A DNA stretch of 64,000 nt from Bacteroidales bacterium (lineage in GTDB: Bacteria > Bacteroidota > Bacteroidia > Bacteroidales > VadinHA17): assembly GCA_003141715.1 (NCBI GenBank), contig PLNF01000025.1, positions 8,011 through 72,010 on the forward strand. Direction: 5' to 3'. Shown here piece by piece: positions 36,272 through 64,000 of the stretch. The first letter of the stretch is position 1, and each line of letters begins with the position of its first letter. Under the pieces are notes generated by a model, which was not told the origin of the DNA, ran no database searches, and saw only the letters and a list, made by a program, of their open reading frames with translations. Position numbers and translations under genes: made by a program.

Positions 36272-36291
36272 GTTACAAAAATAATATTAAC

Positions 36292-38278: not shown

Positions 38279-38329
38279 ATCTGATTGATTTGATTTATTT
38301 TTTTAGGATAAAACAGAAACGTAAAAATT

Positions 38330-39319: not shown

Positions 39320-39326
39320 TTCTTTT

Positions 39327-40865: not shown

Positions 40866-40871
40866 CAGAAA

Positions 40872-41645: not shown

Positions 41646-41657
41646 TACAAAATGTAA

Positions 41658-45900: not shown

Positions 45901-46175
45901 TCAATTAATTCAACGGTTACAGGTCCGGGAATTATATCAATATATGGCTCTCCCTCTTTCTGTCTGAATACCGAAAACATAGTATGTTGCCTGTTAAATA
46001 AAAGGCTCATGCTCTTTTCAAAAATATCCAAATTAATTTCGATCTTAAAATGATACGTCAATACCATATTATAGGCAGGATTTGTATTATCCAGCTGTGA
46101 TATTATCCATAACTTTTTTTGATTTGCCATCAATGGCAAACCTCGTTGAACCGATGGATGCGTTTTTTTATTCAT
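42957..46175 (-). CDS. NRPS module C-A-T (A-domain code DAFWLGGTFK, Val-like)
   Basis: C: LPLMANQKKLW and HHIIFDGWS. A: YTSGTTGNPKG, FDAS, NGYGPTENT, YRTGDYAKW, KIRGFRVELEEIE, PKTINGKIDR. T: FFDIGGNSLLAI (Ser at 43152-43154). Approximate domains: C 44860-46130, A 43300-44800, T 43040-43250. Confidence 0.95.
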   Translation of the reverse strand: MNKKTHPSVQRGLPLMANQKKLWIISQLDNTNPAYNMVLTYHFKIEINLDIFEKSMSLLFNRQHTMFSVFRQKEGEPYIDIIPGPVTVELIDFSGFPVNLRREAILSFAGKDSRRCFDVENGPLYRLYLLKDDETNYYFHATIHHIIFDGWSIRVFVQELSTIYNNLILNADYKPEPLKFHSYNYAQVENRSFSDENEKELIEFWKDNLKGCQPELKFPYDYHRKNDPTGFGFRQSFEISKEYTLKLKELSKNQGSTLFSTMVSLVGVLLQKYSGENDICIGIPVSNRRTHPSLDKIFGLFLNTAVVRLKIETKNKFKDHVNYTKNVVRNTILNSKLPFERIVEVVNPDRISGINPIFQVSLSWLNDMIIPIDFGNIKGERITLADDVTPFDIIFYMWESGDKIQGEIKFNIDILKPETIIRLKENFLTLIRNIFENYDVAIESLPLISDGEKFIIDGFNNTHTAYPKDKTIIQLFEEQVDEFPDKTAVVFKEELLTYKQLNYKANQLALNLMKVGVGRNTPVGILAEKSLDVIVGILGILKAGGVYVPIDPDYPSLRINFIIKDSGCKVLLAQDKCIGICLDGVTKLSLNDAGSDTEEVSNPGNINRSSDLGYIMYTSGTTGNPKGSMICQHSIVRLVRNTNYIDITPEDKILLTSAIVFDASTFEIWGALLNGGSLFMAEKETILNPGALGEALVKNDITILWLTSALFTHLAESGTDIFGNLKYLLVGGDVLSAPHINKVRKANPGLKVINGYGPTENTTFSTAYLIEKDLDHNIPIGRPISNSTCYIFDNNMNYQPIGVIGELYIGGDGLSKGYINRDDLNKKSFIDHPQLPGERLYRTGDYAKWLPDGNIEFHGRIDNQLKIRGFRVELEEIESVISEIDGVIETVIKSVKVEEGDYRLIAFLNVPESFKMGTKEIIKRVRDKLPPYMVPLAYKYMHGFPKTINGKIDRNALIFDLKDLESRKNEEIKTLSQTEYRVFKIWNEVLKTDDFSVTDNFFDIGGNSLLAISVFSKIKSALNVELGLRIFFDNPRIKDLAETIDIYIKNSIENKSVNKENKTDTKIVTGEL

Positions 46176-46201
46176 CTCCTCTCAAATTGCAATTTATCGT
46201 G

Positions 46202-52200: not shown

Positions 52201-55200
52201 TTACACCAAAAAAAGATGAATCAAACTGATCGGCATTCTCTAAATTGCCATTGGCTAATACATAATTATCATTTTCGAGCAGAGCTTTATCGACACCCTT
52301 CTTTAACAATTCCTCCTTCGTGTAATATGTTATTGCCTCTTTCCCTGAAGAAATAATTTTCCAGTAATCTTCAGTGCTCTTTACTCCTGAAAACCTCCCG
52401 GTCATCCCTATAATTGCGATATCTTTTACCGCACGTCTGTTATCATCTGAATTTGTACTGATATCAGGAACAGGTTTTTCAGTTTTACTTTCGCCATCGA
52501 TAAAAGCCGCTAATTCTCTGACTGTTGGAAACTGGAAGATATCAACAATATTTATCTGAATATTAAACTGTCTGAAAAGTTTGATCACAATTTGGGGAAT
52601 CAACACAGAATGGCCCCCAATGTCGAAGAAGTTGTCAGTATTATTGAAATTGTCACTTTTTAATATTTGCTGCCAGACTGACATAACATTCTTTTCTGTC
52701 TGCTTATATCTTTGGTCAGGTACCAGATCAGATGCAGACCTTATCACAAGATTTTTATTCAGCTCAGCGATAATTTTATCAAGAGTAAGAAATTTTTCAA
52801 GTATCAGATAATAAAAGTCATTCCTGTTCTGATTTTTTGTGAGTCCGACTGAATCTTTTGTTTTTTCATCTTCAGAAAATTCCTGATTTGAAATATTACT
52901 ATCCGGATCAAAAGTAAATCCGATTGCTCTTTCTACCGGAATATTAAAAATCTGAATCTCATTGCTATAGTGACCAAAATCACCAAAATTTGAATTAATA
53001 AAATTCTCTGCCGGAGTATTTTTATCAGTTTTTCTGAAACTAACTGTCAGGTAAACTGAATTATTCAGTCTGGCCTTTTCACCCAGGAAGGATATAAGAA
53101 AATGTTCCACTCCTTTTCCCAGTACACGGCAACTTAGCAGGAATGTCTCAACTGAATATCCAGATGATTTATTGACAATTATCACACCGGTAAGACCATA
53201 ATCTCCAAACCGGTCAGAAAGGGTAACCTGAAAACAATCAACATTTTTGTCAAATGAGAGATTCTTAATCTCACTTTCGCTTTTCCTTAAAGTTGTAAAA
53301 TTGAATTGATTTGTTCTGTATGTTAACTGAGATATTCGGGATATATTTCCATCCTGAAATGGCTTTATTTCTACCTTTAAATTTAATCCTGTAATAAAAT
53401 CTTTATATGTTTTAAATGAGGATCTGAAGTTTATGCGTACAGCTTCTTCCCTGTACTTCTCCGATCTTTTCCTGTCCTCATCGGTAATTCTCAGCTTATC
53501 GAAAATCCAGGAATTGTTTAGCTGCTTTATATTAATCCCATCTTCGGGTAACTGTATTGTAAGAACTTCTGGCGTATTGTTCCTCACCTCTGCACATTCC
53601 ATCGGATTGTCATCAATGAAGACAAAACTATCAAGGCCGATATTAATGTCTTTAGCCAGCTGAATAAGGTTTTCAGATTTTGGATTCCAGTTAATTTTAT
53701 AAAAAGACAGATGTTCTCTTTTCAAAACCATCTGATCATTCTTATCAAATACTTCAAATACATCCTCTTCCCTGTTTTTACTGCACAGACATATCAGTAT
53801 CCCGGATTTATTTTGTTCAATCAGAAATTCCTGTAAAGCCTTCTCTCCCGGACCAACCTTAACTCCTGTTGGTCCTTCTTCTGCAACAACACCTTTCCAA
53901 AGAGTATTATCGCAATCAACTGCAATCGCTTTGAAAGGTAAACTAAAAGAAAGATGAATTTTCCTTGCTATAATTGTTGAGAGTGATATGAAAAAATTAT
54001 CTGAGAAGGGTATATGTCCTATCTCTTCCCCCAATTCCTCATAATAATCATGAATATCATAAGTATCTAGGAGCTCACCCGAATTTAACACCAGGATATT
54101 TGATTTTGATTTTAGAATTGACGTTAACCTGTTCTCAGCTTCAGCAATAATTTCAGATAAGATTGGATTCTTCAGAATTCCCGGTGACGGAGGACAAAAT
54201 GCCAGAATGTACTTTCCTTGTGTATTTAGCTGAATAGCCACAGAAAAAGCATCTTCAATCTCATCAACCTTTTTACTAAAATCTGAAATGGAACCCTCGG
54301 AATTTTTATCTTTTATCCAATCTTCAAACCGAATGAGAAGGATATTGTATCCACTGATATTTGAATTAAATTCACTTCCCGGATTCAGCAATTGAGAGAA
54401 GACCTGGTTGTATCCAGGAAAAGTTATTAAGGGAGTAACACCAAATTTCTTAAGCCAGAATTCTAAATATGGTTCTACAGGTTCTACAGTGAAGGTTCCT
54501 GTAATATTGATATTAAGCAACGGTTTTTCCGGCTTCAACGGGTTCTCATCTGATAACCAGGATGGTTTAAAGCTGAGATCGTTAATAATCAGATCAAGAA
54601 TCCTTAAAAACTCATCTTTAAAGAGATTAATGCTATCATTATCAAAGAGATCACTATTAAATTTTAAAGCACATAAAAGTTTACTCTCATCATCGACTAT
54701 TTCCAGTGTCAGGTCTACTTGTCCCTCCTGATCAAAAATCTTATAAGGTTTAATAAAAACTGAACCCCATGATGAATATTCTGTGGTCTCAGAATCACCC
54801 AGAAAATGCAACAGACAACCAAGAGATTTTTTATTTAAGTAATTAAAGATTACCTGGAAAATTGGTGTCCGTGAAAGATCTCTTTTAGGAGAAATCTTCT
54901 CCACAATAATCGGGAATGGAATATCCTGATTTTCAAGACTTTCATAAAGCCGGATTTTGTTTTCATTCAAAAAATCAATAAATGATTCCTGGCTTCTAAT
55001 GGAGCACGCTAAGGGAAGCATGTTAATTAAATACCCAAATATATCTTCGAAGATTTTGTTTGTCCTTGCCGCTGCAGGTAATCCAACGCAGAAATCTCCC
55101 TGTCCGGATATTTTAGATATAAAAAACTCAAATGCTGAAAACAGGAGTACATTAAATGTAACGTTATTATTTTTTGCTATCGACCACAGATTATGAAACA

Positions 55201-56068
55201 TCTCACCTTCGATTTTAAACAGGAGAGTACTTCCGTTAAACTGATGTACTGAAGGTCTTTTAAACTTAGCAGGCAGATTAAGGGTATGAGATCTGCCATG
55301 AAGTTGGTTCACCCAGTAATCTATCTGACTTTCCCCTTTTTCACTATTTAAGAATTCTATCTGATCGAAAATAAAATTGTTATAGTCTGAGGCAGGAGAG
55401 ATTTTTAAAATATTTGTGTTTTGAATTAAAGAATCATAAATATTTATAAACTCATTCAACAAATTCCGCAGTGAAATTGCATCACAGGTAATATGGTGAA
55501 AATTGAAACTCAGGATAGCTGAATCGGATTTATTGACAATAGTTAATCTTAAGAGAGGGCCATTCTCAAGGTCAAATGGCAGCCTATATTTCTTATTTAA
55601 CAAGATCTTTATTTGCTCATCACTAAGTTTTAATCCATCGATCTGTTCGATAGCCGGACTAATTTTGTCTAAAACTATCTGACAAACAGTATTATCGATT
55701 CCCGGAAGAACAGCAAATATTGTCCTTAAAGACTGGTGTTGTTCTATGAGAGATGAAAGAGTAATCCTCAAGGCATCAATATTTAAAGTACCCTGTACCT
55801 CTGCTGCCAATGAAATATTATATGAAACATTTGAGGGATTTACAGCCCCGATAAACCATATTGCTTTTTGATTATGTGCAAGAGGCAATACTTTAATCTT
55901 TTTTGACTTAGTATTCCTTAAAATCTCTTTGAAAAAGTCCTTGTTTGACTTTAAAAAATCAGTTTTTGAGGAATCCAGTTCTTTCTCCTCAACTCTGTAC
56001 TTTAATACATCATCATCTATCCAGAGCTCTAAGTGCTTTGGAAAGAAAGAATCAAAATCTTTTTTCAT
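46202..56068 (-). CDS. hybrid NRPS-PKS megasynthase: dock-C-FkbH-T-KS-AT-T-C-A-T
   Basis: See the domain features below. The ATG at 56066-56068 forms an ATGA overlap with the stop of the upstream MT-ACP gene. The track's TTG at 56086 is less likely. Confidence 0.95.
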   Translation of the reverse strand: MKKDFDSFFPKHLELWIDDDVLKYRVEEKELDSSKTDFLKSNKDFFKEILRNTKSKKIKVLPLAHNQKAIWFIGAVNPSNVSYNISLAAEVQGTLNIDALRITLSSLIEQHQSLRTIFAVLPGIDNTVCQIVLDKISPAIEQIDGLKLSDEQIKILLNKKYRLPFDLENGPLLRLTIVNKSDSAILSFNFHHITCDAISLRNLLNEFINIYDSLIQNTNILKISPASDYNNFIFDQIEFLNSEKGESQIDYWVNQLHGRSHTLNLPAKFKRPSVHQFNGSTLLFKIEGEMFHNLWSIAKNNNVTFNVLLFSAFEFFISKISGQGDFCVGLPAAARTNKIFEDIFGYLINMLPLACSIRSQESFIDFLNENKIRLYESLENQDIPFPIIVEKISPKRDLSRTPIFQVIFNYLNKKSLGCLLHFLGDSETTEYSSWGSVFIKPYKIFDQEGQVDLTLEIVDDESKLLCALKFNSDLFDNDSINLFKDEFLRILDLIINDLSFKPSWLSDENPLKPEKPLLNINITGTFTVEPVEPYLEFWLKKFGVTPLITFPGYNQVFSQLLNPGSEFNSNISGYNILLIRFEDWIKDKNSEGSISDFSKKVDEIEDAFSVAIQLNTQGKYILAFCPPSPGILKNPILSEIIAEAENRLTSILKSKSNILVLNSGELLDTYDIHDYYEELGEEIGHIPFSDNFFISLSTIIARKIHLSFSLPFKAIAVDCDNTLWKGVVAEEGPTGVKVGPGEKALQEFLIEQNKSGILICLCSKNREEDVFEVFDKNDQMVLKREHLSFYKINWNPKSENLIQLAKDINIGLDSFVFIDDNPMECAEVRNNTPEVLTIQLPEDGINIKQLNNSWIFDKLRITDEDRKRSEKYREEAVRINFRSSFKTYKDFITGLNLKVEIKPFQDGNISRISQLTYRTNQFNFTTLRKSESEIKNLSFDKNVDCFQVTLSDRFGDYGLTGVIIVNKSSGYSVETFLLSCRVLGKGVEHFLISFLGEKARLNNSVYLTVSFRKTDKNTPAENFINSNFGDFGHYSNEIQIFNIPVERAIGFTFDPDSNISNQEFSEDEKTKDSVGLTKNQNRNDFYYLILEKFLTLDKIIAELNKNLVIRSASDLVPDQRYKQTEKNVMSVWQQILKSDNFNNTDNFFDIGGHSVLIPQIVIKLFRQFNIQINIVDIFQFPTVRELAAFIDGESKTEKPVPDISTNSDDNRRAVKDIAIIGMTGRFSGVKSTEDYWKIISSGKEAITYYTKEELLKKGVDKALLENDNYVLANGNLENADQFDSSFFGVTPREADFMDPQHRVFLESCYEALENAGYTSEKYPGEIGVFAGCGMNNYLAKNLFQHPESLRSIGEFQTIINNNSDYLTTRVSYKLNLTGPSIDIQTACSTSLVAIHIACQNLISRSCDMALAGGVFIQIPHAEGYMYEAGGIFSPDGHCKPFDSEANGTLFGEGSGVVVLKRLEDAVSDCDTILGVIKGTAINNDGSNKVGYMAPSINGQAAVVRKAIAVANIAPDTISYIETHGTGTKLGDPIEVNALNSVFRNASARRNYCALGSVKANIGHLDAAAGVAGVIKVVLMLNNKKLVPLLNFKKPNPELPLNDTPFYLNTSLSEWTTTRGPRRAGISSFGIGGTNAHCILEEAPVRVKEASGKKYHLLPVTAKTPDALKNLKQSIYHHVLDTDQDIADISFTLQQGRSHYKHRSLLICKTESDKSIPLLMKDTEITGIRELFNPRVVFMFTGQGSQYIGMTRDLYNEFSLFRDIIDKADVFLKANFSIEILKYILQDNDDSLQNEINQTSVAQPLLFTVQYAIARLLEEFGLKPDVLIGHSIGEYAAACISEIFDFEDALTLVAHRGKLMQEQKPGAMLSVQLSCNELSPFVSEKVNLSLKNAPDLNVLSGEFQDIEEAEKKIIAQYPDIHLSRLKTSHAFHSYMMEPVLGPFSEILKKIKFGESRIPFISNLTGTWAVNGELSNAQYWTDQIRATVNFVDGIQELLKEANVYFIEVGPGNMLATLLSQYDTSGKRINISSTTRHPKKKLNDIPVFLKALGQAWISGVNINWDNYYKGEKRYRVPLPSYPFERKRHWIDPETPFNYFNESSERIQEIKPVLSGTDSDEQKYDGKYLSFHDRPSMDEEYVEPKTDIEKSIAGIWENLLGIKGIGINDDFFYLGGHSLLASQIITRISEKFHVRLPLESLFESSTISGLIRKIESEKPVKQDTPDIISMSPDGRLPVSFDQKRLWILNQIDRNNPAYNIPFTYRLKGNLNVEIFIKSLKLLLDRQTILKSSIQSHEGEPYCLINNFETLPITFLDYSSYASEEVEQKIQDFFTGESRNIFDIENGPLFRFYLVKISDNESVFHMTVQHMVFDGWSWGIFAGELRQIYNDLLNNREIDLIPLKYQYYDIANWQESNITEDSFKTSIDYWKKQLKDHPAEINFPFSYSRTKRPTGFGSREPLRMTLDFSGKIREISQRENSTVFMTLLAGFSLLLNKYSGDNDICIGIPTANRVNSDTEEIIGLFVNTIILRLRFDNSLTFKELLHYTRNITIEGLAHQDLPFEKLVETLQPERKINVNPISQILFAYQNTPRPPLNLEGIMPERILIKDTVAPFDMTFYAWDNDGIVEGELEFNSDLFDREFIIRLKENFVFLLKSVIENPDQRISEISIISDNDRTKLEEFNRTNVPVTDCLVQSFFEQQSVIHPSKKAVISGDSSLTYKELNDQANQLAGYLISLGATEGDIIGICIERSVEMVISVLGVLKAGCSYLPMDPSFPDDRITFMFEDSGARALITQSSLMEKTRMFKTPIVFIDTDRGKIRKYSTVKPELILSPKSNAYTIYTSGSTGKPKGVKVHHAAVVNLIESMLKEPGIKENDILLAVVTLSFDMSVFELFVPLSAGATIVIAKSGETTDGPALTDLIKKHNITVIQATPSFWNILLSGGWQGKDDLKALCGGEALTSVLVRQILPKVNEFWNCYGPTETTVYSVYTKVIDPDAPILIGRPVNNTSIYILDKNNNQLPVGVIGEVCIGGLGVTKGYINRPDLTAEKFITLENKQIIYKTGDLGRFLIDGNVELFGRSDNQIKLRGFRIEPGEIESLLTQVQDVKEAVVIVHKFDENDHRLVAFLNVSDDFNIDTKELNRRLKEKLPSYMIPTFYNIMKEFPKTSNGKIDRKSLIFQINELGKTGSDEIEALTPTEKVIFKIWSETLKTEDITVTDNFFESGGNSLLAIAVFSKIESAFNIDLGLRVFFDSPRIKDLAEAIDISVKKSVKQKSVDKPTKPESKLVIGEI
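46290..46500 (-). other. megasynthase carrier domain T3
   Basis: FFESGGNSLLAI, Ser at 46397-46399. Confidence 0.85.
46560..48040 (-). other. megasynthase adenylation domain (code DMFQLGCVYK by hand alignment)
   Basis: YTSGSTGKPKG, FDMSVFE, NCYGPTETT, YKTGDLGRF, KLRGFRIEPGEIE, PKTSNGKIDR. Confidence 0.9.
48060..49380 (-). other. megasynthase domain C2 (LCL-like condensation)
   Basis: LPVSFDQKRLWILNQ and QHMVFDGWSWG. Confidence 0.85.
49440..49640 (-). other. megasynthase carrier domain T2
   Basis: FFYLGGHSLLAS, Ser at 49547-49549. Follows the AT directly, with no KR/DH/ER between. Confidence 0.85.
50000..50870 (-). other. megasynthase acyltransferase (AT), malonyl-type motifs
   Basis: FMFTGQGSQY. 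GHSIGEYAA (Ser at 50579-50581). SHAFHS (HAFH, not YASH). Confidence 0.9.
51141..52423 (-). other. megasynthase ketosynthase (KS), catalytic C-H-H intact
   Basis: DIAIIGMTGRF. DIQTACSTSL (Cys at 51908-51910). ETHGTGTKLGDPIE. KANIGHLDAAAG. GGTNAHCILEE. Confidence 0.95.
52500..52700 (-). other. megasynthase carrier domain T1
   Basis: FFDIGGHSVL, Ser codon at 52607-52609. Confidence 0.85.
52980..54515 (-). other. megasynthase FkbH-like domain (HAD-IIIC phosphatase + glyceryl-S-Cys transfer region)
   Basis: DxDxT motif AVDCDNTLWKG (DCDNT at 53903-53917). LLSCRVLGKGVEHF with Cys at 53129-53131. Collinear with the stand-alone FkbH at 58835-60577. Confidence 0.85.
54590..55895 (-). other. megasynthase domain C1 (condensation, variant active site HHITCDAIS)
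   Basis: KVLPLAHNQKAIWF at about 55857-55895. HHITCD at 55481-55498 (Ala replaces the usual Gly of HHxxxDG). Confidence 0.8.
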
Positions 56069-57300
56069 AGTTTGCCCTCTAACCAATGACTGCCTGAATT
56101 ATTATCCGGACTTTTAGTCATATCTGTAGAGTTGGTGTTAAGTTTTTCTAAAATGAGTTTTATGATATCATTTATTGAAAATTTCTGCAGAATATCTGAA
56201 ATACTTATACCGGTTTGAAAATCAGATTTGACAATACTGCTTAACTCTGCAGCCGCAATAGAATCAATATCAAATAAATTTAGCTTTGTATCCGGGTTTA
56301 AATCCAAATTTTTCTGTTCCAATATCGAACTGACTCTTTTAATAAAATATGAGCTTAATTTAGCTTCCTGTTCTGAAGAAGTCAGTGACTTTATATCATC
56401 AATGTTCAGAGACAGGGTGTTTAATATTTGTAAATCATTTTCATCTACCTTAATATTTTCAACCACCGGGTTAAGACTCTTCATGCCACTAATCACAAAA
56501 AGTTGTCTGAAAATAACATGATCAGGCTGCTGAAACAATTTATACCAATTCTCAATTAAAGATTCGAGCGTTTCCTTTTTTAAGAATCCTTCTTTGACAA
56601 GGCTCTTGGATATATTGACATTTTCTGCTTTTACAAATGCTTTGTCACCTTCAAGGCCACTATGTACGCAAATGATTTCAATGTTTATGTTATCGAATTT
56701 TTCTTTTTTCAGAAGTCCCGGCAATTGTCTGCCGATTAATGGATTGCCTCCCTCACTAAATCTGGAATTGATATAAGCTGTGTACATCTCATCCAATTCC
56801 GGAATAGCCGGATAAGTTAATAAGTGGTAAGCAAAATCATTACTTATCAGGACAAATTTCCCTCCTGGTTTGAGAATCCTTCTGACTTCAGCTATTGCTT
56901 TGGCAGGTTCCTTAAGATGCTCAAAGACGAGGCGGGCAATAGCAAAATCATAATAATTTTCGGCCAATTCAGTCTCATATATTGAAGCATGTTTTACTTC
57001 AAACAGCTTTTTACCATTAATTGTAGAATTTTCCTTAAGTACCTCAACCAAAAAAGGATTTATCTCAAGGGCAGTAGCCGTACAATTGGGCAAATCTCTT
57101 ACAATATTGCTTATCAGAAATCCTGGTCCGCTGCCACATTCGACAATTTTCATCCCATCTTTTAGTCCAATCTTTTTATAAAGCTCCAATTCCCTTTGAT
57201 AAAAAAGCTCAACCTGATATTTTAACCGGGTTACTTCGGAGTCCTTATTTTCAGAAAAACTTTCTAAAATATAAGATCCATCTATTTTGTTCAAATTCAT
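56065..57300 (-). CDS. class I SAM-dependent methyltransferase fused to a C-terminal carrier (ACP-like) domain
   Basis: Motif I is IVECGSGPGFL, followed by RILKPGGKFVLIS. The C-terminal 80 aa carry LNLFDIDSIAAAEL (Ser at 56260-56262). Confidence 0.75.
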   Translation of the reverse strand: MNLNKIDGSYILESFSENKDSEVTRLKYQVELFYQRELELYKKIGLKDGMKIVECGSGPGFLISNIVRDLPNCTATALEINPFLVEVLKENSTINGKKLFEVKHASIYETELAENYYDFAIARLVFEHLKEPAKAIAEVRRILKPGGKFVLISNDFAYHLLTYPAIPELDEMYTAYINSRFSEGGNPLIGRQLPGLLKKEKFDNINIEIICVHSGLEGDKAFVKAENVNISKSLVKEGFLKKETLESLIENWYKLFQQPDHVIFRQLFVISGMKSLNPVVENIKVDENDLQILNTLSLNIDDIKSLTSSEQEAKLSSYFIKRVSSILEQKNLDLNPDTKLNLFDIDSIAAAELSSIVKSDFQTGISISDILQKFSINDIIKLILEKLNTNSTDMTKSPDNNSGSHWLEGKL

Positions 57301-57350
57301 TTCCTGCTTAAATCAATGTATATTTATAATCAATAATTAACAATTGCTTC

Positions 57351-58172
57351 TCAATTATGTTTTTTTTTGGACTTTGAAAATAACCATGAGAATACATCAG
57401 GATCAGTATAAACATTTTTTTCAATATCGTGCCCTCCACCTTTTATGACAGTGAATTTTACTTCACCCCCGCATTTTGCAAGACTATCGGTCATTTCCTG
57501 TGTTTCTTTGTAACTATAGATCGGATCATTTTCTCCACTGAATGCCCAGATGTGGATATCTTTAACAAGATATGCATGAGACGGGTCAGAAGCGGCACAA
57601 ATCGGAATTGCCACTGTAAACAAGTCTGGGTTTCTGAGTATCAATTCCCATAATCCTGTTCCACCCATTGAATGCCCGATTATATAAATACGATCAGTAT
57701 CAATAGAATTTTCGCTTATAATCTTTTTTATTAAATCGCGGACAATTTCAAGAACCGGACTTGACGGTATTGAGTCCAGCGAAAAGTTATTAAAAGGTCT
57801 TTTGGGATTGATAGTCCATATTCTGTCTGAAGGACACTGTGGTATAAGAATAAAAGGAGAGTATTGTTTTCTTAACATTTGGATGAATTTCGCCTTTGTG
57901 TAATCGATATCGCTGATATTATCAGATCCTCTTCCTCCGGCTCCATGAAGTATTACTACCAGTGGTGCTTTTAAATTGTTTGCTGACTTAAATAACCTGT
58001 ACTTTACTGTTATCTCCTTTTTTTTAAACTCACCTTGCTCTGACTGGCTAACAATATGACCTATTCGAATTCTATTTATTCCAGATTTAAAAATAGGTTT
58101 CCCTTTGATTAAGAAATAGCAGCCCAGCACAATAACAATACATAAAATAATATATGAGATTTTAATTTGCAT
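57351..58172 (-). CDS. exported alpha/beta-hydrolase (esterase/lipase-like), signal-anchor or lipoprotein-like N-terminus
   Basis: MQIKISYIILCIVIVLGCY N-terminus. HGAGGRGSDN. Nucleophile elbow IIGHSMGGTG. C-terminal GGGHD. Confidence 0.7.
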   Translation of the reverse strand: MQIKISYIILCIVIVLGCYFLIKGKPIFKSGINRIRIGHIVSQSEQGEFKKKEITVKYRLFKSANNLKAPLVVILHGAGGRGSDNISDIDYTKAKFIQMLRKQYSPFILIPQCPSDRIWTINPKRPFNNFSLDSIPSSPVLEIVRDLIKKIISENSIDTDRIYIIGHSMGGTGLWELILRNPDLFTVAIPICAASDPSHAYLVKDIHIWAFSGENDPIYSYKETQEMTDSLAKCGGEVKFTVIKGGGHDIEKNVYTDPDVFSWLFSKSKKKHN

Positions 58173-58204: not shown

Positions 58205-58588
58205 TTATTTCCTGGAACTTAAAATTTCAATTATTCCATAAGAGACCATTAAAAAAGCAACCTTTCTGTTATTGAATAAAATAGCAAGTTTTGGAGGAGT
58301 AATCAGGATGGCGCCATCCTTTTCAAGTCTATCTAATTCTGCCCCAAAATCATCAACTTCATAACAAAGGTGATAATAACTGATTCTCTTCTTTAATATC
58401 GATTCAACCTGTTTACCTGAGATTAATTCCATTTTTAATCCCTCGTCAATTGTCAGTAAGCATAATTCAGCGTTTTGTTCCTGATCAAAAACAACAGGGC
58501 TCTGATCTAAAATCCTGTGAATTTTAGCTATTTCGGCTATTTCCTCAATAATATTCCGACATGCAATTCCAATGTGGTGAAACCTCAT
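58205..58588 (-). CDS. VOC-family protein (glyoxalase/methylmalonyl-CoA-epimerase-like)
   Basis: MRFHHIGIACRNI N-terminus and a second half-site, HLCYEVDD. 127 aa. Confidence 0.7.
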   Translation of the reverse strand: MRFHHIGIACRNIIEEIAEIAKIHRILDQSPVVFDQEQNAELCLLTIDEGLKMELISGKQVESILKKRISYYHLCYEVDDFGAELDRLEKDGAILITPPKLAILFNNRKVAFLMVSYGIIEILSSRK

Positions 58589-58605: not shown

Positions 58606-58854
58606 TTATAGTAATCTCGATAAAACTGAATTTATAATTTCTCCTGCATTGGTCCAGCTTTGGATCTCTTTTGATGTAAATCTAATTTTATAGTGCTTTT
58701 CTAATGCTACCACAAGATGAATGTGAATTAATGAATCCCAACCCTCCACATCGTTTTGAGTCGTTTTTTCATCTATACGGATTTCTTCATTATCAAGTAA
58801 CTCCACAAAGATTTTATTAAGTTGTTCCAATATATCAATTCTGTTCAAATCCAT
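58606..58854 (-). CDS. discrete acyl carrier protein
   Basis: 82 aa. DVEGWDSLIHIHLV with Ser at 58732-58734. The start overlaps the FkbH 3' end by 20 nt. Confidence 0.75.
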   Translation of the reverse strand: MDLNRIDILEQLNKIFVELLDNEEIRIDEKTTQNDVEGWDSLIHIHLVVALEKHYKIRFTSKEIQSWTNAGEIINSVLSRLL

Positions 58855-60577
58855 TTTCTTTACTATTAATAAAGCACTTCTTATTCTTCAAATCTGTCAC
58901 ATTTAATATCCACAATTTATCTTTCTGTTTAAAGCCAAGATTCAGATAATGATCTTTTACCATCTCATTTTTACCTGTTTTTATGAATTCACCAATTAAA
59001 TTGGTAAAACCTTTTTCCCTGGCGAATTGTCCAATAGTGTTTAATACAAAGTTCTCCACACCCCTGTTAATTACTCTGCAACTCATAAGCCAGGTATCAA
59101 TAAACAAATTGATTTCATCCATTTCTCTAAGAATGATAATGCAAATCAGTCCGTTATCTCCAAACTTATCTTCAAGAGTGAATGAAAAAGAGTAGAATTC
59201 TTTTGAGAGGGAAATCGATTCAATTTCTTTTTCGGTGTATCTAATGGTACGTAAGTTGAATTGATTTGAACGTTGTGTCAATTGTGCAACACGGGGCGCG
59301 TTAAATTTATTAAATGGCAGGACCAGGGACATCATTTTTAAACTCTTTAAAAACTCATCTTCATTTATGAAACTCTTTTTTATTTCTGTACGCAGGGTCT
59401 CAAGCTGATATTGTTTTGTTCTGTCAGTATCTTCATTGGAAATTGAAGCAATTTCAAAAAGATTTAAAGCATACAAATATTCCAGATAATCGGCAGGATC
59501 TTCTGGTAAATCAGGTACAACAATCTCAGGAATGTTTTCCTTAACCAGGTTTCGTTCAGAAGGGTTATCATCCAGGAATACCATCGAATCAAAACCAATG
59601 TTAAGGATACTCTGTATTTGCCTTATATTATGGACTTTATTTTCCCAATTGGCCATAAAGACAGCAAAATCATCAATGTGAAGCACCATCTCAGGATGTT
59701 TTTCAAATGGTTCTTTTGCAACCGACTCTTTGTTTTTACTGCAAACAGCCAGAATTATGCCCCTGTTTTTCAGTTTTTTTATCCAGTATTGAAATTCGGT
59801 AAAAGCTTTCCCAATTCCTAAATTTCCAATTTCAATGTTTTCTATACCATCATCACCAATAATTCCTCCCCAGATGGTATTATCTAAATCGAGAATCAAA
59901 CATTTTTTAAACTTTCCATACAATGCGGAGATGAGCTCAAGATTCCGGGAAGCAATATATGGCAGAATGTCAATACTTAGAACTATCTCAGAGTTGATAT
60001 ATATAGAGGGTTGGAACATGGTGGATTTACCTGCCTGATTTTGAATTGATGAAATATCGCAGAGATAGAAATCAGTGTGTTTGCTGGCGTATTGCATCAC
60101 TTCATAATTCAGCTTACGCAGTTGAAATAAAAAAGATGAATCAGTTTTGTTGGCAAAGTTGCCAAATACAGAATCATTTACTTCAGGGTAGTTATAAAAA
60201 ATAATTTTAGTTTTAAGGTCTCTAATTAATGCCTGATATATATTATCAATCAACTTTAACTGGTTATCAGCTAATGTATTGTATTGCTTAATCTCAAGTT
60301 TATTAAATTTATTTAATAGTTTGTGGGTAGACTGAAAAATAATAACAACTTCAGGATTAAACTTATATAATTCAGATGCAGTATCAAAAACCTGACGTTC
60401 AATCTGGTCAAAATCCGCTTCAAAAATTATCAGATCAAATCCAAAATCGAAACCTGTTCCTCGCAATGCCTGCACAAGAAACTGAGTTGCAGTATCTCCC
60501 AGAACAGCCATTCTGACAGATTTCAAATTTGTGAAATCACATTTTAAATTCTTCTTTAATTGCAAAAAAGACTTCAT
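58835..60577 (-). CDS. stand-alone FkbH-like protein (HAD-IIIC family)
   Basis: LILDLDNTIWGG (DLDNT at 59876-59890). MSCRVINRGVENF (Cys at 59078-59080). I prefer the ATG at 60577: the track's 60727 start would overlap the upstream NRPS by 89 nt. Confidence 0.85.
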   Translation of the reverse strand: MKSFLQLKKNLKCDFTNLKSVRMAVLGDTATQFLVQALRGTGFDFGFDLIIFEADFDQIERQVFDTASELYKFNPEVVIIFQSTHKLLNKFNKLEIKQYNTLADNQLKLIDNIYQALIRDLKTKIIFYNYPEVNDSVFGNFANKTDSSFLFQLRKLNYEVMQYASKHTDFYLCDISSIQNQAGKSTMFQPSIYINSEIVLSIDILPYIASRNLELISALYGKFKKCLILDLDNTIWGGIIGDDGIENIEIGNLGIGKAFTEFQYWIKKLKNRGIILAVCSKNKESVAKEPFEKHPEMVLHIDDFAVFMANWENKVHNIRQIQSILNIGFDSMVFLDDNPSERNLVKENIPEIVVPDLPEDPADYLEYLYALNLFEIASISNEDTDRTKQYQLETLRTEIKKSFINEDEFLKSLKMMSLVLPFNKFNAPRVAQLTQRSNQFNLRTIRYTEKEIESISLSKEFYSFSFTLEDKFGDNGLICIIILREMDEINLFIDTWLMSCRVINRGVENFVLNTIGQFAREKGFTNLIGEFIKTGKNEMVKDHYLNLGFKQKDKLWILNVTDLKNKKCFINSKENGFEQN

Positions 60578-60638
60578 ATAAATATGCAAAAAGATAATTT
60601 GATCTCCTCTCTGACAATCCTTAACAACATTTGTCTCT

Positions 60639-63600
60639 TTAAATTTCTCCTTCAATAATTTTAGGATTTGACAGAGTTGTTTTATTTGCAGAAATATTTT
60701 TGACTTTATTCTGACGTGCAATATCAATTGCCTCAGCTAAATCCTTTATTCTTGGACTATCAAAGAAAACTCTTAATCCCCACTCAAGATTAAATGCAGA
60801 TTCTATCTTTGAAAAGACTGATATAGCTAAAAGAGAATTTCCTCCTATTTCAAAGAAATTATCTGTTATTGATATTTCTTCAGTCTTTAGAGCTTCACTC
60901 CAGAATTTATGAATTATATTTTCTGTAGGTGTAAGAGTTTTACTTTCAACAATTTTCCTGAATTCCGGCTCTTTTACATCAAAAATACGTGATTTCCTGT
61001 CAATTTTCCCGTTAATAGTTTTAGGGAACCCGTGCATGAATTTGTATGCTGATGGCACCATATAAGAAGGCAATTTTGCTTTTATAAGTCTGCCAATTTC
61101 TTTTGGATCCATATAAGATGATTCCGGAACATTCAAAAAAGCTACCAGCATATAATCTCCAACTTCAACTTTTGCGGGCTTGACTACTGTTTCTATAATA
61201 CCATCTATCTCTGAGATGACTGATTCAATCTCCTCCAACTCAACCCTGAATCCTCTTATTTTAAATTGATTATCAACCCTGCCATGAAATTCGATGTTTC
61301 CGTCCGGTAACCACTTAGCGCGATCACCTGTCCTGTAGAGTCTTTCTGCAGGATTATGAGGATTAGCTATATAACTAGTTTTATTTAAATCTTCTCTGTT
61401 CAAATATCCCATTGAAAGACCATCGCCTCCAACGTATAACTCCCCGATAACTCCTATCGGCTGATAATTCATGTTACTATCAAAAATATAGGCAGTGGAA
61501 TTGCTTACTGGTTTGCCAATTGGAATGTTATTCTCAAAATCTCGGTCAATCAAATAGGTTGTTGAAAATGTTGTATTCTCTGTAGGTCCGTAGCCGTTTA
61601 TAACTTTCAGCTTTGGATTATCTTTCCGCACCCTATTTATGTGAGAGGTTGACAGAACGTCCCCTCCTACAAGCAAATACTTTAGTTTGCTGAATATATC
61701 TGCGTGTGACTCTGAAATCTGCGTGAATAACGATGATGACAACCAAAGAATGGTAATATTATTCTTATGAAGTTCTTCACCCAGGGTTTTCGGATCGAGA
61801 ATAGTCTCCTTCTCTTCAAGATACAGGGTACCTCCGTTCAACAGAGCACCCCATATTTCAAAAGTTGTTGCATCAAATACTATTGCCCCTGTAAGGAGTA
61901 TTCTATCGGCCGATGTAATTTCAATATAGTTTGTATTCCGAACAAGTCTGACTACACCGTACTGAGGTATCAAACTCCCCTTGGGAACTCCTGTAGTCCC
62001 TGACGTGTACATGATATAGGCAAGATCTGAAGACTTGTTTCTCGTCTTAGGGTTTGATTTTTCTTCAGCATAAGAACCAGGATTGTTCAGGTTTAATCTA
62101 GTAACATTATCTAAATATATGCTCATGCTTTTGTCCTGAACGAGGAGTACTTTACATCCTGAGTCCTTAATAATGAAATTGATTCTCATTGAAGGGTAAT
62201 CTGGATCAATGGGCACATAAACTCCGCCTGCTTTTAGAATACCAAGGATCCCCACTATCACAGCTAAAGACTTTTCTGCCAGAATTCCCACAGGTGTATT
62301 TCTTCCGACTCCAATCTTAATTAGATTATTGGCTAATTGATTTGCTTTATAATTTAATTGTTTATAGGTCAATGATTCTTCTTTAAAAACCAAGGCTGTT
62401 TTATCCGGATAAATAGAAACCTGCTCTTCGAATAACTGGATAATTGTTTTATCTTTTGGATAGTCAATATGAGTATTGTTAAAACCATCGATCTTTACTT
62501 TCTCCTCATCAGTAATTAAAGGAAGCGATTCAAGAGCAGCATCAGATTTTTCAACCAGATTATTTACTAAACTCAAGAAGTTGTTCCTAAACTGGAGTAT
62601 AGTTTCATGTTTCAATAAATCGGTAGAATATTCAATCTCACCTTCAATTATTCCTTCACTTTCCCAGAGATATATTGTAATATCAAATGGAGTAGTTCTA
62701 AGTTTTTCAGATACCTTAATGCTTCTGATACAGTCCAGCTTCAATGGAACGTTCAGATTATTCTGCCAGACAAAACCTATCTGAAATATTGGATTAACGC
62801 TGGGAAAACGTTCCGGATTCACAATTTCCACGATAGTTTCAAACGGGAGTTCCTTATGAGCTATTGCATTTAAAGCAACTTGATCAGTTTGGTGAATTAG
62901 TTTTCTAAATGTAAGCTCTTTGTTGAATTTAAGCCGTACAACTATCGTATTGACAAACATTCCAAAAACATTCTCAAGTTTTGAATGAGAACGGGAAGCC
63001 ACCGGTAATCCAATGTTAATATCAACTTCGCCTGAATATTTATGTATCTGAATCCCAAATGTGCTCAACATTGTGGAAAACAGTGAAATACCCTCTTCCT
63101 TACTTATTTCTCTGAGTTTATCTGATAATTCCTGTGAAAATCTAATGACTTCGTAACCACCTTTTCCTGTCGGCTGACTCCTTCGTTGAAAATCATATGG
63201 AAAATTAAGAATCGGGGACGCCTCTTTTAAATTGTCTTTCCAGAATTCAATTAATTCATTCTCAACACTAAAATTTGAATAGCTATTTTCCCAATGAGCA
63301 TAATCATATTGTTGAAATTCAACTTTTTCCAGATCGATCTCTTTCCTTTCTAACAAATTGTTATAGATTTTATTAAGATCCTTAACAAATACACCCCATG
63401 ACCAACCATCAAAAATTATATGATGAATACTAAAATGGAAATAATATTCATTGATACTAGTCATAATAAGGTACAAACGATACAATGGACCATTTCTCAG
63501 ATCGAAGGCCTTTTCAGAATCTGCATTAAGGATCTCATTTACTTTCTTTTCTTTCTCATTTTCTGGCAGTCCTGAATAATCAATAAATTCAAGATTAACT

Positions 63601-64000
63601 TCTGATAGAACTATATCACAATAAGGTTCTCCATCAATTTCCTTAATTACAGAAAATACGATGTGATGCCGCTGGAATAAAATCTCCAAACTCTTTTTAA
63701 ATACTTCACGATCAAGATAACCAACAAGATGATAAGTAAACGAGATAATGTATGACGGTATAGCAGGCTGTAATTTTGAAATAACCCATAACCTTTTCTG
63801 ATTTTTTGTAAGGGGTAAATTCGTTGTTTCAGTCAAATGGATCAATTCAATTGCTTTTTCTGAGCTTCCGGCTCGATTTTCAATTAAGACACTTAATTGT
63901 TTTATTGTAGAATTAGCAATTAATGCTCCAAAGGTCAAAGAAAATCCAAGCTCTTCCCTTATTTTATTAATGAGTCTGATTGCCAATAACGAATTGGCTC
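60639..64000 (-). CDS. NRPS, partial: ...T-C-A-T (5' end beyond right window edge; A code DAFWLGGTFK, Val-like)
   Basis: The frame stays open to the window edge and reads ...ANSLLAIRLINKI (a T-domain motif). C: LPLTKNQKRLW and HHIIFDGWS. A: YTSGTTGVPKG, FDAT, NGYGPTENT, PKTINGKIDR. T: FFEIGGNSLLAI (Ser at 60834-60836). Confidence 0.95.
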   Translation of the reverse strand, partial: ANSLLAIRLINKIREELGFSLTFGALIANSTIKQLSVLIENRAGSSEKAIELIHLTETTNLPLTKNQKRLWVISKLQPAIPSYIISFTYHLVGYLDREVFKKSLEILFQRHHIVFSVIKEIDGEPYCDIVLSEVNLEFIDYSGLPENEKEKKVNEILNADSEKAFDLRNGPLYRLYLIMTSINEYYFHFSIHHIIFDGWSWGVFVKDLNKIYNNLLERKEIDLEKVEFQQYDYAHWENSYSNFSVENELIEFWKDNLKEASPILNFPYDFQRRSQPTGKGGYEVIRFSQELSDKLREISKEEGISLFSTMLSTFGIQIHKYSGEVDINIGLPVASRSHSKLENVFGMFVNTIVVRLKFNKELTFRKLIHQTDQVALNAIAHKELPFETIVEIVNPERFPSVNPIFQIGFVWQNNLNVPLKLDCIRSIKVSEKLRTTPFDITIYLWESEGIIEGEIEYSTDLLKHETILQFRNNFLSLVNNLVEKSDAALESLPLITDEEKVKIDGFNNTHIDYPKDKTIIQLFEEQVSIYPDKTALVFKEESLTYKQLNYKANQLANNLIKIGVGRNTPVGILAEKSLAVIVGILGILKAGGVYVPIDPDYPSMRINFIIKDSGCKVLLVQDKSMSIYLDNVTRLNLNNPGSYAEEKSNPKTRNKSSDLAYIMYTSGTTGVPKGSLIPQYGVVRLVRNTNYIEITSADRILLTGAIVFDATTFEIWGALLNGGTLYLEEKETILDPKTLGEELHKNNITILWLSSSLFTQISESHADIFSKLKYLLVGGDVLSTSHINRVRKDNPKLKVINGYGPTENTTFSTTYLIDRDFENNIPIGKPVSNSTAYIFDSNMNYQPIGVIGELYVGGDGLSMGYLNREDLNKTSYIANPHNPAERLYRTGDRAKWLPDGNIEFHGRVDNQFKIRGFRVELEEIESVISEIDGIIETVVKPAKVEVGDYMLVAFLNVPESSYMDPKEIGRLIKAKLPSYMVPSAYKFMHGFPKTINGKIDRKSRIFDVKEPEFRKIVESKTLTPTENIIHKFWSEALKTEEISITDNFFEIGGNSLLAISVFSKIESAFNLEWGLRVFFDSPRIKDLAEAIDIARQNKVKNISANKTTLSNPKIIEGEI

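Follow-up and report, generated by a model that had tools for sequence, protein, structure and literature searches.

The genes for a stand-alone FkbH, an 82-aa ACP and a VOC protein (hereafter the trio), found in a 64,000-nucleotide stretch of Bacteroidales DNA (hereafter the window), represent a variation on known chemistry and not a methoxymalonate pathway that has lost its dehydrogenases. We regard it as probable, if far from certain, that the trio is a discrete (type II) VOC-FkbH-T loading unit which gives a VOC-modified glyceryl starter to the neighbouring synthetase NRPS1. The features of the window are as follows.

60639-64000, minus strand: 3′ part of NRPS1 (C-A-T-C-A-T; Pfam C, A and T matches), with the frame open to the window edge
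58835-60577, minus strand: stand-alone FkbH of the BF1531 type (TIGR01686, PF21211 and PDB 3SLR matches)
58606-58854, minus strand: dedicated 82-aa ACP (PP-binding Pfam match)
58205-58588, minus strand: 127-aa VOC metalloenzyme (Glyoxalase_4, Pfam E 8e-13)
57351-58172, minus strand: 273-aa alpha/beta hydrolase (Pfam DLH, Abhydrolase_2 and Peptidase_S9)
56065-57300, minus strand: methyltransferase-ACP (MT-ACP) didomain (Pfam Methyltransf_11 and PP-binding/ACP_SdgA_C)
46202-56068, minus strand: hybrid synthase of 3294 aa (Pfam: N-terminal docking domain, C-FkbH-T-KS-AT-T-C-A-T)
42957-46175, minus strand: NRPS3 (C-A-T, Pfam)
41658-42584, minus strand: thioesterase (TE) with a TubC-type N-terminal docking domain (Pfam TubC_N and Thioesterase)
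40872-41645, minus strand: Sfp-type phosphopantetheinyl transferase (PPTase; Pfam ACPS and AASDHPPT_N)
39327-40865, minus strand: 512-aa flippase/exporter-like membrane protein (weak MatE match)

The open reading frame of the stand-alone FkbH spans 58835-60727 on the minus strand, and the ATG at 60577 is its likely start, which gives a protein of 580 aa. This protein consists of an N-terminal PF21211 domain (FkbH_N, 242 bits), a HAD-IIIC phosphatase domain and a C-terminal transferase domain bearing the Cys; its TIGR01686 FkbH score is 288 bits (cutoff 147), and PDB 3SLR matches it with 489 bits across residues 3-381. The coordinates and motifs given for it in the original prediction hold, with the DLDNT codons at 59876-59890 and the Cys codon, within an SCRV motif, at 59078-59080; since the CSKN and DDN motifs are also intact, the HAD motif set is full. 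From these features, the protein is predicted to be a glyceryl-ACP synthase. The ACP scores 22.4 bits against PP-binding (cutoff 20.8) and its WDSL serine is residue 41 (Ser41, codon 58732-58734). The first 20 nt of its gene, counted from the ATG at 58854, still belong to the FkbH frame, whose stop codon is at 58835-58837, and through this overlap the ACP is translationally coupled to FkbH, as had been claimed. The VOC gene begins after an intergenic gap of 17 nt; the order reported earlier, with the VOC protein and then an MT-ACP fusion downstream, is likewise correct, and the alpha/beta hydrolase between them had gone unmentioned.

Two features of the methoxymalonyl-ACP pathway, an FkbH loader and a dedicated ACP, are present in the window, and FkbK and FkbI are absent. 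No Pfam match to an acyl-CoA dehydrogenase or a 3-hydroxyacyl-CoA dehydrogenase was obtained among window ORFs of at least 100 aa, which agrees with what had been read from the sequence. The suggested check of the right flank gave the same answer: in the 6.6 kb of the source contig beyond the right edge (L001), upstream of the trio, there is no FkbI/FkbK-type dehydrogenase, and this segment contains the rest of NRPS1, a 48-aa ORF, a 506-aa membrane protein, a GT2 gene and a radical-SAM gene. Moreover, we found no AT that would select an ACP-linked methoxymalonyl unit. The only AT, that of the hybrid synthase, bears the motifs GHSIGE and HAFH, which we take to be of the malonyl-CoA type, and by these motifs it is a malonyl-type AT. 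A methyltransferase does lie near the trio; it is fused to its own ACP and co-occurs with the hybrid synthase rather than with the trio.

More than 8000 Bacteroidota FkbH-like proteins (the family of BF1531, PDB 3SLR) match the stand-alone FkbH, which among the matches listed is 64-71% identical to the FkbH of 160 loci. A recognised ACP adjoins FkbH in 99 of 115 related loci, and the ACPs that follow FkbH are 46-79% identical to the 82-aa ACP (46-67% in MBOAT-context loci). The normal setting of these gene pairs is a polysaccharide locus, where a DltB-like MBOAT accompanies FkbH-ACP in 90 of the 115; DltB is the best PDB match of this MBOAT, and a partner of ∼316 aa is encoded alongside. Tailoring genes in the related loci are MaoC together with SDR, class I methyltransferases, or VOC, and in 24 loci methyltransferase genes stand beside FkbH-ACP. 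FkbI/FkbK-like genes were not seen among the tailoring ORFs of the ∼115 related loci. Because the Bacteroidota family does without them, missing dehydrogenases are normal for the stand-alone FkbH, and together with the malonyl-type AT this speaks against the methoxymalonyl-type pathway without dehydrogenases that the original prediction had considered. By tblastn, homologs of MBOAT, Acyl_transf_3, MaoC, SDR and the SGNH partner were all absent from the 64-kb window, so no other user of the acyl-ACP is apparent there. In the open-access literature, we found no measured substrate of a BF1531-type FkbH and no described FkbH-MBOAT, BF1531 or HAD-IIIC association.

The closest PDB relative of the VOC protein is glyoxalase I of C. 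acetobutylicum, and 121 homologs all preserve the four metal ligands of the VOC protein (H5, E54, H73 and E121). Against the methylmalonyl-CoA epimerase equivalog TIGR03081 it reaches 19.6 bits, below the cutoff of 115. VOCs with 58-67% identity are found in MBOAT cassettes (L011, L017, L068, L093, L105, L113 and L115). Among the best 150 VOC homologs there are 51 long proteins, of which 46 are VOC-FkbH fusions, and the earlier suggestion that the VOC protein acts on the tethered unit thus gains strong support. In these 46 fusions the VOC domain is N-terminal in 29, a C domain lies downstream in 27, and 13 have a C-VOC-FkbH-T arrangement with glycerate as the acceptor. They sit in NRPS/PKS megasynthases, often as VOC-FkbH-T-C-A-T loading modules, and their FkbH domains belong with the carrier-fused rather than the BF1531 subtype. 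The window VOC shares 45% identity (E 2e-38) with the VOC domain of P0350, a VOC-FkbH-T protein. The annotations found for the fusion proteins are generic and none has a named product; a description of an FkbH association with a glyoxalase or VOC protein was not found in the open-access literature. Glyoxalase I has an alpha-hydroxy thioester as its product. The predicted substrate of the VOC protein is the glyceryl thioester on the carrier, which it would either epimerise at C2 or convert by an enediolate-type rearrangement.

In all four NRPS-context loci (the window, L006, L007 and L009) the FkbH-ACP-VOC trio comes directly after an NRPS gene, and the four NRPS-adjacent FkbH copies are monophyletic in a neighbour-joining tree without support values. 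L009, the only additional NRPS-context locus among the genome and metagenome matches listed, has a collinear NRPS1 ortholog of 64% identity ahead of the trio and unrelated T9SS cargo genes behind it; in L007, a TE directly follows the trio and a homolog of the flippase-like protein (60% identity) comes after the PPTase. In the window, a scan for promoters and terminators (with the sigma-70 consensus) was uninformative near the trio and within the 372-nt gap between NRPS3 and TE, with counts equal to those of shuffled sequences. NRPS1 extends past the right window edge and measures 2119 aa in full (L001 positions 3580-9939). It opens with a C domain at residue 1, with no T or docking domain ahead of it, and the HHxxxD motif of this first C domain is intact (HHIIID); its C-terminal end is a T domain. 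In gene order the trio comes behind NRPS1 rather than ahead of it. In the fusions, the C domains behind VOC-FkbH-T match Hyb_C2 best and not the first C domain of NRPS1 (NRPS1-C1). PDB searches with NRPS1-C1 and Hyb_C1 returned generic C-domain matches and no starter or ester-forming signal, and NRPS1-C1 has no resemblance to the lipo-starter C domains in PDB. The A-domain codes, derived by alignment to GrsA, are of low confidence; the one predicted for the first A domain of NRPS1 is Ser-like.

The second FkbH, embedded in the hybrid synthase at ∼52697-54574, has DCDNT at 53903-53917 and an SCRV Cys at 53129-53131 and scores 291 bits against TIGR01686. That the two FkbH copies arose by recent duplication was considered and rejected: identity is only 35% across the HAD and C-terminal half, the N-domains are unalignable and the nearest relatives differ. 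Two separate glycerate-derived units, as the original prediction proposed, are plausible, since DxDxT, the Cys and an FkbH-level HMM score are retained in both, and one megasynthase of a Cellvibrio sp. (P0480) offers a precedent with two FkbH modules, one with VOC and one without. The MT-ACP stop codon and the first nucleotides of the hybrid synthase overlap, and the MT-ACP tail, HWLEGKL, is similar to T-domain docking tails. Among the loci examined with its 196 homologs, a C-FkbH-T protein follows MT-ACP in L088 and L089, and in L088 a homolog of the hydrolase (56% identity) lies directly upstream. Judged from domains and gene order, the MT-ACP is the loading carrier of a unit composed of hydrolase, MT-ACP and C-FkbH-T (hereafter unit B). 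The hydrolase, whose N-terminus appears by eye to be a hydrophobic, lipobox-like leader, may be the maturation esterase of unit B. Because L088 and L089 have unit B but no trio, and L007 and L009 the trio but no MT-ACP, the MT-ACP is separate from the stand-alone FkbH, and the link between them drawn in the earlier reading does not stand.

A mechanism can be outlined on the basis of homology. The stand-alone FkbH would take in D-1,3-bisphosphoglycerate, remove the phosphate in its HAD domain and place the glyceryl group on its Cys, from which the group would move to the phosphopantetheine on Ser41 of the 82-aa ACP. The VOC protein, whose link to FkbH is seen in the fusions, would then act on the alpha-hydroxy thioester via a metal-bound enediolate; inversion at C2 to L-glyceryl is the most likely outcome, and dehydration to pyruvoyl is less likely. 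We infer from sequence that the ACP would deliver the acyl group in trans to the N-terminal C domain of NRPS1; if this domain takes the acyl-ACP, an N-acyl cap derived from glycerate would open the peptide. The glyceryl group would not be oxidised to hydroxy- or methoxymalonyl, and the unit of the trio would not be a PKS extender. The trio was probably recruited once, from the widespread FkbH-ACP(-tailoring)-MBOAT cassettes that Bacteroidota carry in polysaccharide loci, and the embedded FkbH would serve a separate, vioprolide-like unit in which MT-ACP hands over to C-FkbH-T.

The origin of the cassette also allows the trio to be read as a remnant of glycan acylation, in which its glycerate-derived acyl-ACP would O-acylate the polysaccharide of the adjacent locus and the NRPS would merely be a neighbour. 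The pairing of FkbH-ACP with a DltB-like MBOAT in 90 of 115 loci of polysaccharide type and the VOCs of 58-67% identity in MBOAT cassettes are in its favour. So is the position of the cluster, which abuts a co-directional polysaccharide locus (25842-40865) whose first gene is the flippase-like one: the gap between TE and PPTase is 12 nt and that between PPTase and flippase is 6 nt. We nevertheless consider glycan acylation rather unlikely, as the MBOAT, Acyl_transf_3 and SGNH-partner homologs are absent from the window, the NRPS-context FkbH copies form a separate clade, each directly behind an NRPS1-type gene, and the genes after the trio in L009 are unrelated T9SS cargo genes.

The glyceryl-ACP could instead serve NRPS1 as acceptor or off-loading partner: the finished peptide would be esterified onto a glycerate hydroxyl, in the manner of C-(VOC)-FkbH-T elongation modules or of tetronate-type termination. 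The order NRPS1, trio, TE in L007 and the 13 C-VOC-FkbH-T fusions would suit this role, and in cystomanamide and vioprolide, glycerate accepts the chain at a C domain that forms an ester (PMC9581180, PMC8949500). Neither L007 nor NRPS1, however, has a free-standing or C-terminal C domain, the window has no tetronate-type FabH-like ketosynthase, and the N-terminal C domain of NRPS1 would be left donorless, so we hold this arrangement to be quite unlikely. The model of the original prediction, in which the methyltransferase of MT-ACP O-methylates glyceryl-ACP to make an unusual PKS extender or a second building block, seems very improbable to us. It could draw on the position of the methyltransferase three genes downstream, on the 24 related loci with methyltransferase genes beside FkbH-ACP, and on O-methylated, non-oxidised glycerate, which is already known from dysinosin, suomilide and the C. 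jejuni flagellar glycan. Against it, blast of MT-ACP against the related FkbH-ACP loci gave no match at E<=1e-5, which indicates that it is not homologous to the cassette methyltransferases; moreover, MT-ACP is coupled to the hybrid synthase, MT-ACP and trio occur apart, and the single AT is of the malonyl type. By established PKS chemistry, an alpha-hydroxy or alpha-alkoxy C3 thioester that lacks a free carboxyl is unable to serve as a decarboxylative extender.

A wider joint reading would have the BF1531-type cassettes carry out Dlt-like glycan acylation, the VOC protein act as a carrier-dependent epimerase or isomerase, and the cassette of the window be rewired to NRPS-PKS; taken as a whole, we see this as possible but doubtful. 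If the Dlt-like part is true, glyceroyl, lactyl (by MaoC and SDR), O-methyl (by the methyltransferases) and a VOC-made isomer would pass through the DltB-like MBOAT to surface glycans, and a second class of carrier-protein-dependent MBOAT systems may exist besides Dlt. The VOC protein would then have a new activity, that of an alpha-hydroxyacyl-thioester epimerase/isomerase dedicated to FkbH products. Should the NRPS-PKS line lie within, and be co-transcribed with, the polysaccharide locus, the product would be a glycan- or lipid-linked peptide-polyketide and not a free metabolite.

The loading-unit reading itself has consequences for annotation. The rule that FkbH means methoxymalonate fails here; across a large Bacteroidota family, loci without the dehydrogenases are the usual case, and the unit would act as donor of a C3 acyl group. 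An unstudied VOC clade, with 46 natural fusions, gains a testable role in tailoring FkbH-loaded carriers, and this role may explain L-configured or altered glycerate units, such as the L-glycerate contained in vioprolide. The locus also illustrates the capture of a glycan-decoration cassette by an NRPS.

Discrete FkbH-ACP pairs that load glyceryl groups are known in OzmB/OzmE (oxazolomycin) and, for tetronates, in Tmn16/Tmn7a and ChlD1/ChlD2. The window resembles loaders of the OzmB, Tmn16 and ChlD1 type in its free-standing FkbH, its small ACP, the DxDxT motif, the Cys and the predicted glyceryl-ACP, and differs from them in the PF21211 N-domain, in belonging to a polysaccharide-linked Bacteroidota family and in the VOC partner. 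In contrast to the methoxymalonyl route, it is without FkbI, FkbK and FkbG partners, and in contrast to the tetronate cassettes it is without a FabH-like ketosynthase: neither this enzyme nor an E2-like acyltransferase was found beside FkbH-ACP in the window, and the nearby hydrolase is of the DLH/esterase type.

In dysinosin (DysB) and suomilide (SuoB), glycerate loaded by FkbH forms an N-terminal cap that is tailored with no oxidation to malonate (PMC6520454, PMC8609519). There, FkbH, T, methyltransferase and sulfotransferase are part of one NRPS, whereas in the window the components are separate proteins in trans and the tailoring enzyme is a VOC protein instead of a methyltransferase or sulfotransferase. 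C-FkbH-T modules occur in the cystomanamide, vioprolide and corramycin systems (PMC9581180, PMC8949500, PMC10099666). The embedded FkbH is like the start of the vioprolide and corramycin lines, with an acyl-ACP loading unit, a C domain of the ester-forming type and FkbH-T, and the nearby exported hydrolase recalls the prodrug idea put forward for these two; its loading unit is MT-ACP, in place of the FAAL-ACP of cystomanamide/vioprolide/corramycin-type modules.

On the glycan side, the C. jejuni flagellar glycan-modification locus has an fkbH-domain gene, cj1302, and the glycan bears a non-oxidised di-O-methylglyceroyl group (PMC7099621, PMC3068675); this is a different phylum with no NRPS, and cj1302 is a candidate gene for the modification. 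The BF1531-type FkbH-ACP-MBOAT family resembles DltABCD in placing a carrier protein, loaded in the cytoplasm, next to a DltB-like MBOAT and a ∼316-aa partner, but has an FkbH loader and not an adenylating DltA, and its acyl group would be glycerate-derived. In the window, the MBOAT of this parent cassette is gone and the neighbour is an NRPS. The VOC-FkbH-T fusions (P0350, P0371 and P0480) share with the window the same VOC clade joined to FkbH and a carrier; in the fusions a carrier-fused FkbH is part of one protein, whereas the window has the BF1531 subtype and distributes the parts over three discrete proteins.

In AT-rich DNA (window GC ∼34%) that also holds type IX secretion genes, and hence stems from a Bacteroidota genome, the NRPS-PKS genes form a co-directional minus-strand array in the order NRPS1, FkbH, ACP, VOC, hydrolase, MT-ACP, hybrid, NRPS3, thioesterase (TE) and PPTase.

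Genes of the array
60639 to beyond 64000, minus strand: NRPS1, extending past the window edge
58835-60577, minus strand: stand-alone FkbH, 580 aa counted from the ATG at 60577
58606-58854, minus strand: ACP, 82 aa
58205-58588, minus strand: VOC protein (Glyoxalase_4), 127 aa
57351-58172, minus strand: alpha/beta hydrolase with hydrophobic leader
56065-57300, minus strand: MT-ACP didomain
46202-56086, minus strand: hybrid synthase, 3294 aa, C-FkbH-T-KS-AT-T-C-A-T
42957-46175, minus strand: NRPS3, C-A-T
41658-42584, minus strand: thioesterase with TubC-type docking domain
40872-41645, minus strand: PPTase

The original prediction was exact in placing the DLDNT motif (59876-59890) and the SCRV cysteine (59078-59080) of the stand-alone FkbH, and its translational overlap with the ACP was recovered, the ACP start codon lying 20 nt within the FkbH ORF. 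Both FkbH copies score far above the curated TIGR01686 cutoff of 147 bits (stand-alone, 288 bits; embedded in the hybrid, 291 bits), and a 3738-aa Cellvibrio sp. protein (P0480, C-FkbH-T-C-VOC-FkbH-T-C-A-T) contains two glycerate modules, with VOC in one only; thus, the proposed two glycerate units in one cluster are plausible. The two copies share 35% identity, confined to the HAD and C-terminal half. The stand-alone copy matches the uncharacterised Bacteroides fragilis protein BF1531 (PDB 3SLR) with 489 bits over residues 3-381, and has >8000 homologs, most ∼70% identical and ∼573 aa long, in hosts including Flavobacterium, Mucilaginibacter, Ferruginibacter and Puia. Its PF21211 N-domain is missing from the nearest relatives of the embedded copy, which are FkbH-T and FkbH-T-TE fusions with 40-48% identity, the named ones mostly cyanobacterial.

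The reported lack of dehydrogenases was borne out, since a Pfam scan of every window ORF of at least 100 aa gave zero matches to acyl-CoA-dehydrogenase and 3-hydroxyacyl-CoA-dehydrogenase families. Dehydrogenase genes just upstream would, by the original prediction, have spoken against it; the 6.6 kb past the right edge reached by locus L001 (source scaffold metagenomic, 128 kb) contain none. This stretch completes NRPS1 (2119 aa, C-A-T-C-A-T); the genes preceding NRPS1 there encode a polytopic membrane protein of 506 aa without family match, a GT2 similar to polyprenyl-phosphate sugar synthases and a radical-SAM protein, alongside a 48-aa ORF. We then considered 160 related loci plus five obtained by exact look-up, using crude gene calls and neighbours labelled by blastp. 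Scanning 148 representatives of the unlabelled neighbours gave glycosyltransferases and sugar-nucleotide enzymes, and no family of acyl-CoA or 3-hydroxyacyl-CoA dehydrogenases was matched by two or more of them. Hence, absence of FkbI/FkbK is the norm for the BF1531-type FkbH family, and the methoxymalonyl framing of the original prediction is not supported, the AT of the hybrid also being malonyl-type (GHSIGE, HAFH; by motif inspection, the KS is intact).

Neighbours were counted within 6 kb in those 115 loci whose downstream sequence extended to 3 kb or more. A recognisable small ACP adjoins FkbH in 99 of them and an MBOAT is present in 90, while a MaoC dehydratase plus SDR (35/115), a VOC (28/115) and class I methyltransferases (24/115) are less frequent and an NRPS occurs in only 3/115. 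The cassette consists of a BF1531-type FkbH and an ∼80-aa ACP, then an MBOAT that among PDB entries matches DltB best (E ∼1e-29) and an ∼316-aa partner with no Pfam match (L003, 10001-14480; L008, L010, L019, L023 and ∼85 more loci); a Pfam check of tailoring ORFs gave methyltransferases (two in some cases), a VOC and a GT2. To judge by its genes, this would be a Dlt-like O-acylation system, dependent on a carrier protein, that attaches glycerate-derived groups to surface glycans, and we found no description of such an FkbH-ACP-MBOAT system in the open-access literature. FkbH-ACP-MaoC dehydratase-SDR(-MBOAT) cassettes also occur (L004:10001-12978, L005:10001-12358, L027, L037, L052 and ∼30 others), with two paralogous ones in Flavobacterium psychrotolerans, each in a different polysaccharide locus. 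They look like a discrete counterpart of the dehydrate-then-reduce route from glyceryl to lactyl, for which the bryostatin BryA loading module may be a parallel.

An NRPS lies beside FkbH in four loci, namely the window (L001/L002), L006 (81% identity), L007 (78%) and L009 from a Rikenellaceae MAG (71%), and in all four the FkbH-ACP-VOC trio directly follows the NRPS gene. Over NRPS1 residues 575-2119 the L009 NRPS gene aligns collinearly (64% identity). In a neighbour-joining tree without support values these copies are monophyletic and nested within the MBOAT-context family, and no MBOAT, Acyl_transf_3, MaoC or SDR homologs occur within the 64-kb window. The trio apparently originates in glycan-acylation cassettes.

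Searched in full with HMMER, 1.84 billion representatives yielded 891 homologs of the window VOC. Among the best 150, 51 are at least 300 aa long, and in 46 of these 51 the VOC immediately precedes an FkbH domain in the same polypeptide, always an NRPS/PKS protein (for example P0350, P0371, P0390, P0398, P0466 and P0480). The VOC occupies the N-terminus in 29 fusions (VOC-FkbH-T-C-A-T...) and follows a C domain in 13, and a C domain lies downstream in 27; P0350 is a VOC-FkbH-T protein whose VOC is 45% identical to ours. VOC is therefore linked to FkbH-loaded carriers by fusion, which supports the proposed action on a tethered unit. Four metal ligands (H5, E54, H73, E121) are invariant in 121 aligned segments, and the best solved relatives are Clostridium acetobutylicum glyoxalase I structures (2QH0, 3HDP). 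Assignment as the methylmalonyl-CoA epimerase equivalog was ruled out (19.6 bits, cutoff 115). P0460 is a VOC-MT fusion, and for some VOC-FkbH fusion proteins the annotation in certain sources includes an FkbM-family MT. No mention of FkbH together with a glyoxalase or VOC was found in the open-access literature.

Our proposal draws on intact catalytic motifs, FkbH-ACP translational coupling, conserved NRPS1-trio synteny and the VOC-FkbH fusions. FkbH enzymes dephosphorylate D-1,3-bisphosphoglycerate and move the glyceryl group through a Cys to a carrier (PMC8949500, PMC10099666). The stand-alone FkbH would likewise dephosphorylate D-1,3-bisphosphoglycerate and then transfer the group through its Cys to the ACP. 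Two VOC enzymes offer an analogy: glyoxalase I, whose alpha-hydroxy thioester product arises through a metal-bound enediolate, and methylmalonyl-CoA epimerase, which inverts a centre at the alpha position of a thioester. In the same manner, the window VOC may deprotonate C2 of glyceryl-S-ACP, after which reprotonation from the opposite face would give L-glyceryl, or loss of the 3-OH a pyruvoyl group. Vioprolide, an FkbH-derived product, contains L-glycerate. The first residue of NRPS1 already belongs to a C domain (HHIIID intact), which neither a docking domain nor a T domain precedes, and thus trio and C domain together would, from their architecture, reproduce the fused VOC-FkbH-T-C-A-T loading arrangement in separate proteins. 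Against a loading role, the trio is encoded behind NRPS1, not ahead. Moreover, this C1 domain is an outlier (19-25% identity to the other four C domains) with no specific resemblance to C domains after VOC-FkbH-T, nor to lipo-starter C domains in the PDB.

Hydrolase, MT-ACP and hybrid (window 46202-58172) form a separately inherited unit. Among 196 MT-ACP homologs, that of L088 (73% identity) stands between a hydrolase (56%) and a 3289-aa hybrid of the same architecture (L088:8399-20356), whose embedded FkbH is 77% identical to ours; upstream are unrelated T9SS genes, and L088 has no BF1531-type FkbH, small ACP or VOC. In L089 an MT-ACP homolog lies between KS-AT and a C-FkbH protein. Conversely, L007 carries the trio, followed immediately by TE, PPTase and a flippase-like gene, and is missing hydrolase, MT-ACP, hybrid and NRPS3. 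Hence, the MT more likely acts on its own ACP's acyl group or the embedded glycerate than on the stand-alone unit. The original prediction, confirmed in its observation, plausible in its two glycerate units and supported in placing the VOC on the tethered unit, is not supported in the role it gives the MT-ACP, nor in its methoxymalonyl framing. The MT-ACP stop overlaps the hybrid start, and the hydrolase leader is lipobox-like (…IVLGC…). A 372-nt non-coding gap separates the NRPS3 and TE genes (42585-42956), all remaining cluster junctions being ≤61 nt or overlapping; it may be a scar of MT-ACP/hybrid/NRPS3 insertion between VOC and TE, as comparison with L007 suggests. The MT-ACP tail (HWLEGKL, ending WLEGKL) resembles the xGEI/L tails of the other carrier-ending proteins (NRPS1, IIEGEI; hybrid, LVIGEI; NRPS3, IVTGEL), and TubC-like N-terminal docking domains occur on hybrid and TE only, so that the assembly-line order, or the presence of two lines with one TE, is ambiguous. 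Approximate A-domain codes (L001:3580-9939 and window 42957-56086), derived by alignment to GrsA, are Ser-like for NRPS1-A1 (DVWSFSLVDK), Val-like for NRPS1-A2 (DAFSLGGTFK) and NRPS3-A (DAFALGGTFK), and DMFSLGCVYK for hybrid-A. In L090 (7276-11281) a KS-AT-T-C… line begins with a more remote MT-ACP homolog (60% in the MT portion). Its neighbours are an MBOAT with a 299-aa partner, an asparagine-synthase-like gene, an alpha/beta hydrolase and a further small ACP, which again connects MBOATs in Bacteroidota with carrier proteins and assembly lines.

The array lies inside, and co-directional with, a polysaccharide locus (window 25842-42584; L001:779-3447 beyond the right edge), which includes flippase-like, nitroreductase, pyruvyl transferase, DUF1919, glycosyltransferase, hexapeptide transferase, sugar-nucleotide epimerase/dehydratase, UDP-GlcNAc 2-epimerase and WecG genes and, upstream in L001, the GT2 and the 506-aa protein, which is ArnT/GT-C-like. 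Due to the tight packing (TE-PPTase 12 nt, PPTase-flippase 6 nt) and the TE-PPTase-flippase order kept in L007, the product may carry sugars or be attached to a glycan. At the far end are an IS200-type transposase, a Fic-domain protein and a nucleotidyltransferase/HEPN pair, likely a toxin-antitoxin module (window 5293-5808, 8887-10005, 11115-11824).

By analogy, the embedded FkbH is of a known kind, as in the FAAL-ACP-C-FkbH-T start of vioprolide and corramycin, where an ester-forming C couples glycerate to an acyl group that a periplasmic hydrolase has been proposed to cleave off at a later stage (PMC8949500, PMC10099666), and in the C-FkbH-PCP glycerate module of cystomanamide (PMC9581180). 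The unit of hydrolase, MT-ACP and hybrid resembles this start in its acyl-ACP, ester-forming C, FkbH-T and exported hydrolase, but differs in its loading part, MT-ACP instead of FAAL-ACP. The Bacteroidota FkbH glycan loci are paralleled in C. jejuni, whose flagellar glycan bears di-O-methylglyceric acid and whose glycosylation locus includes the fkbH-domain gene cj1302 (PMC7099621, PMC3068675). Discrete FkbH-ACP pairs and glycerate caps loaded by FkbH are already known; new here are a BF1531-type cassette that would serve an NRPS, its dedicated VOC partner and its apparent origin in glycan-acylation cassettes.
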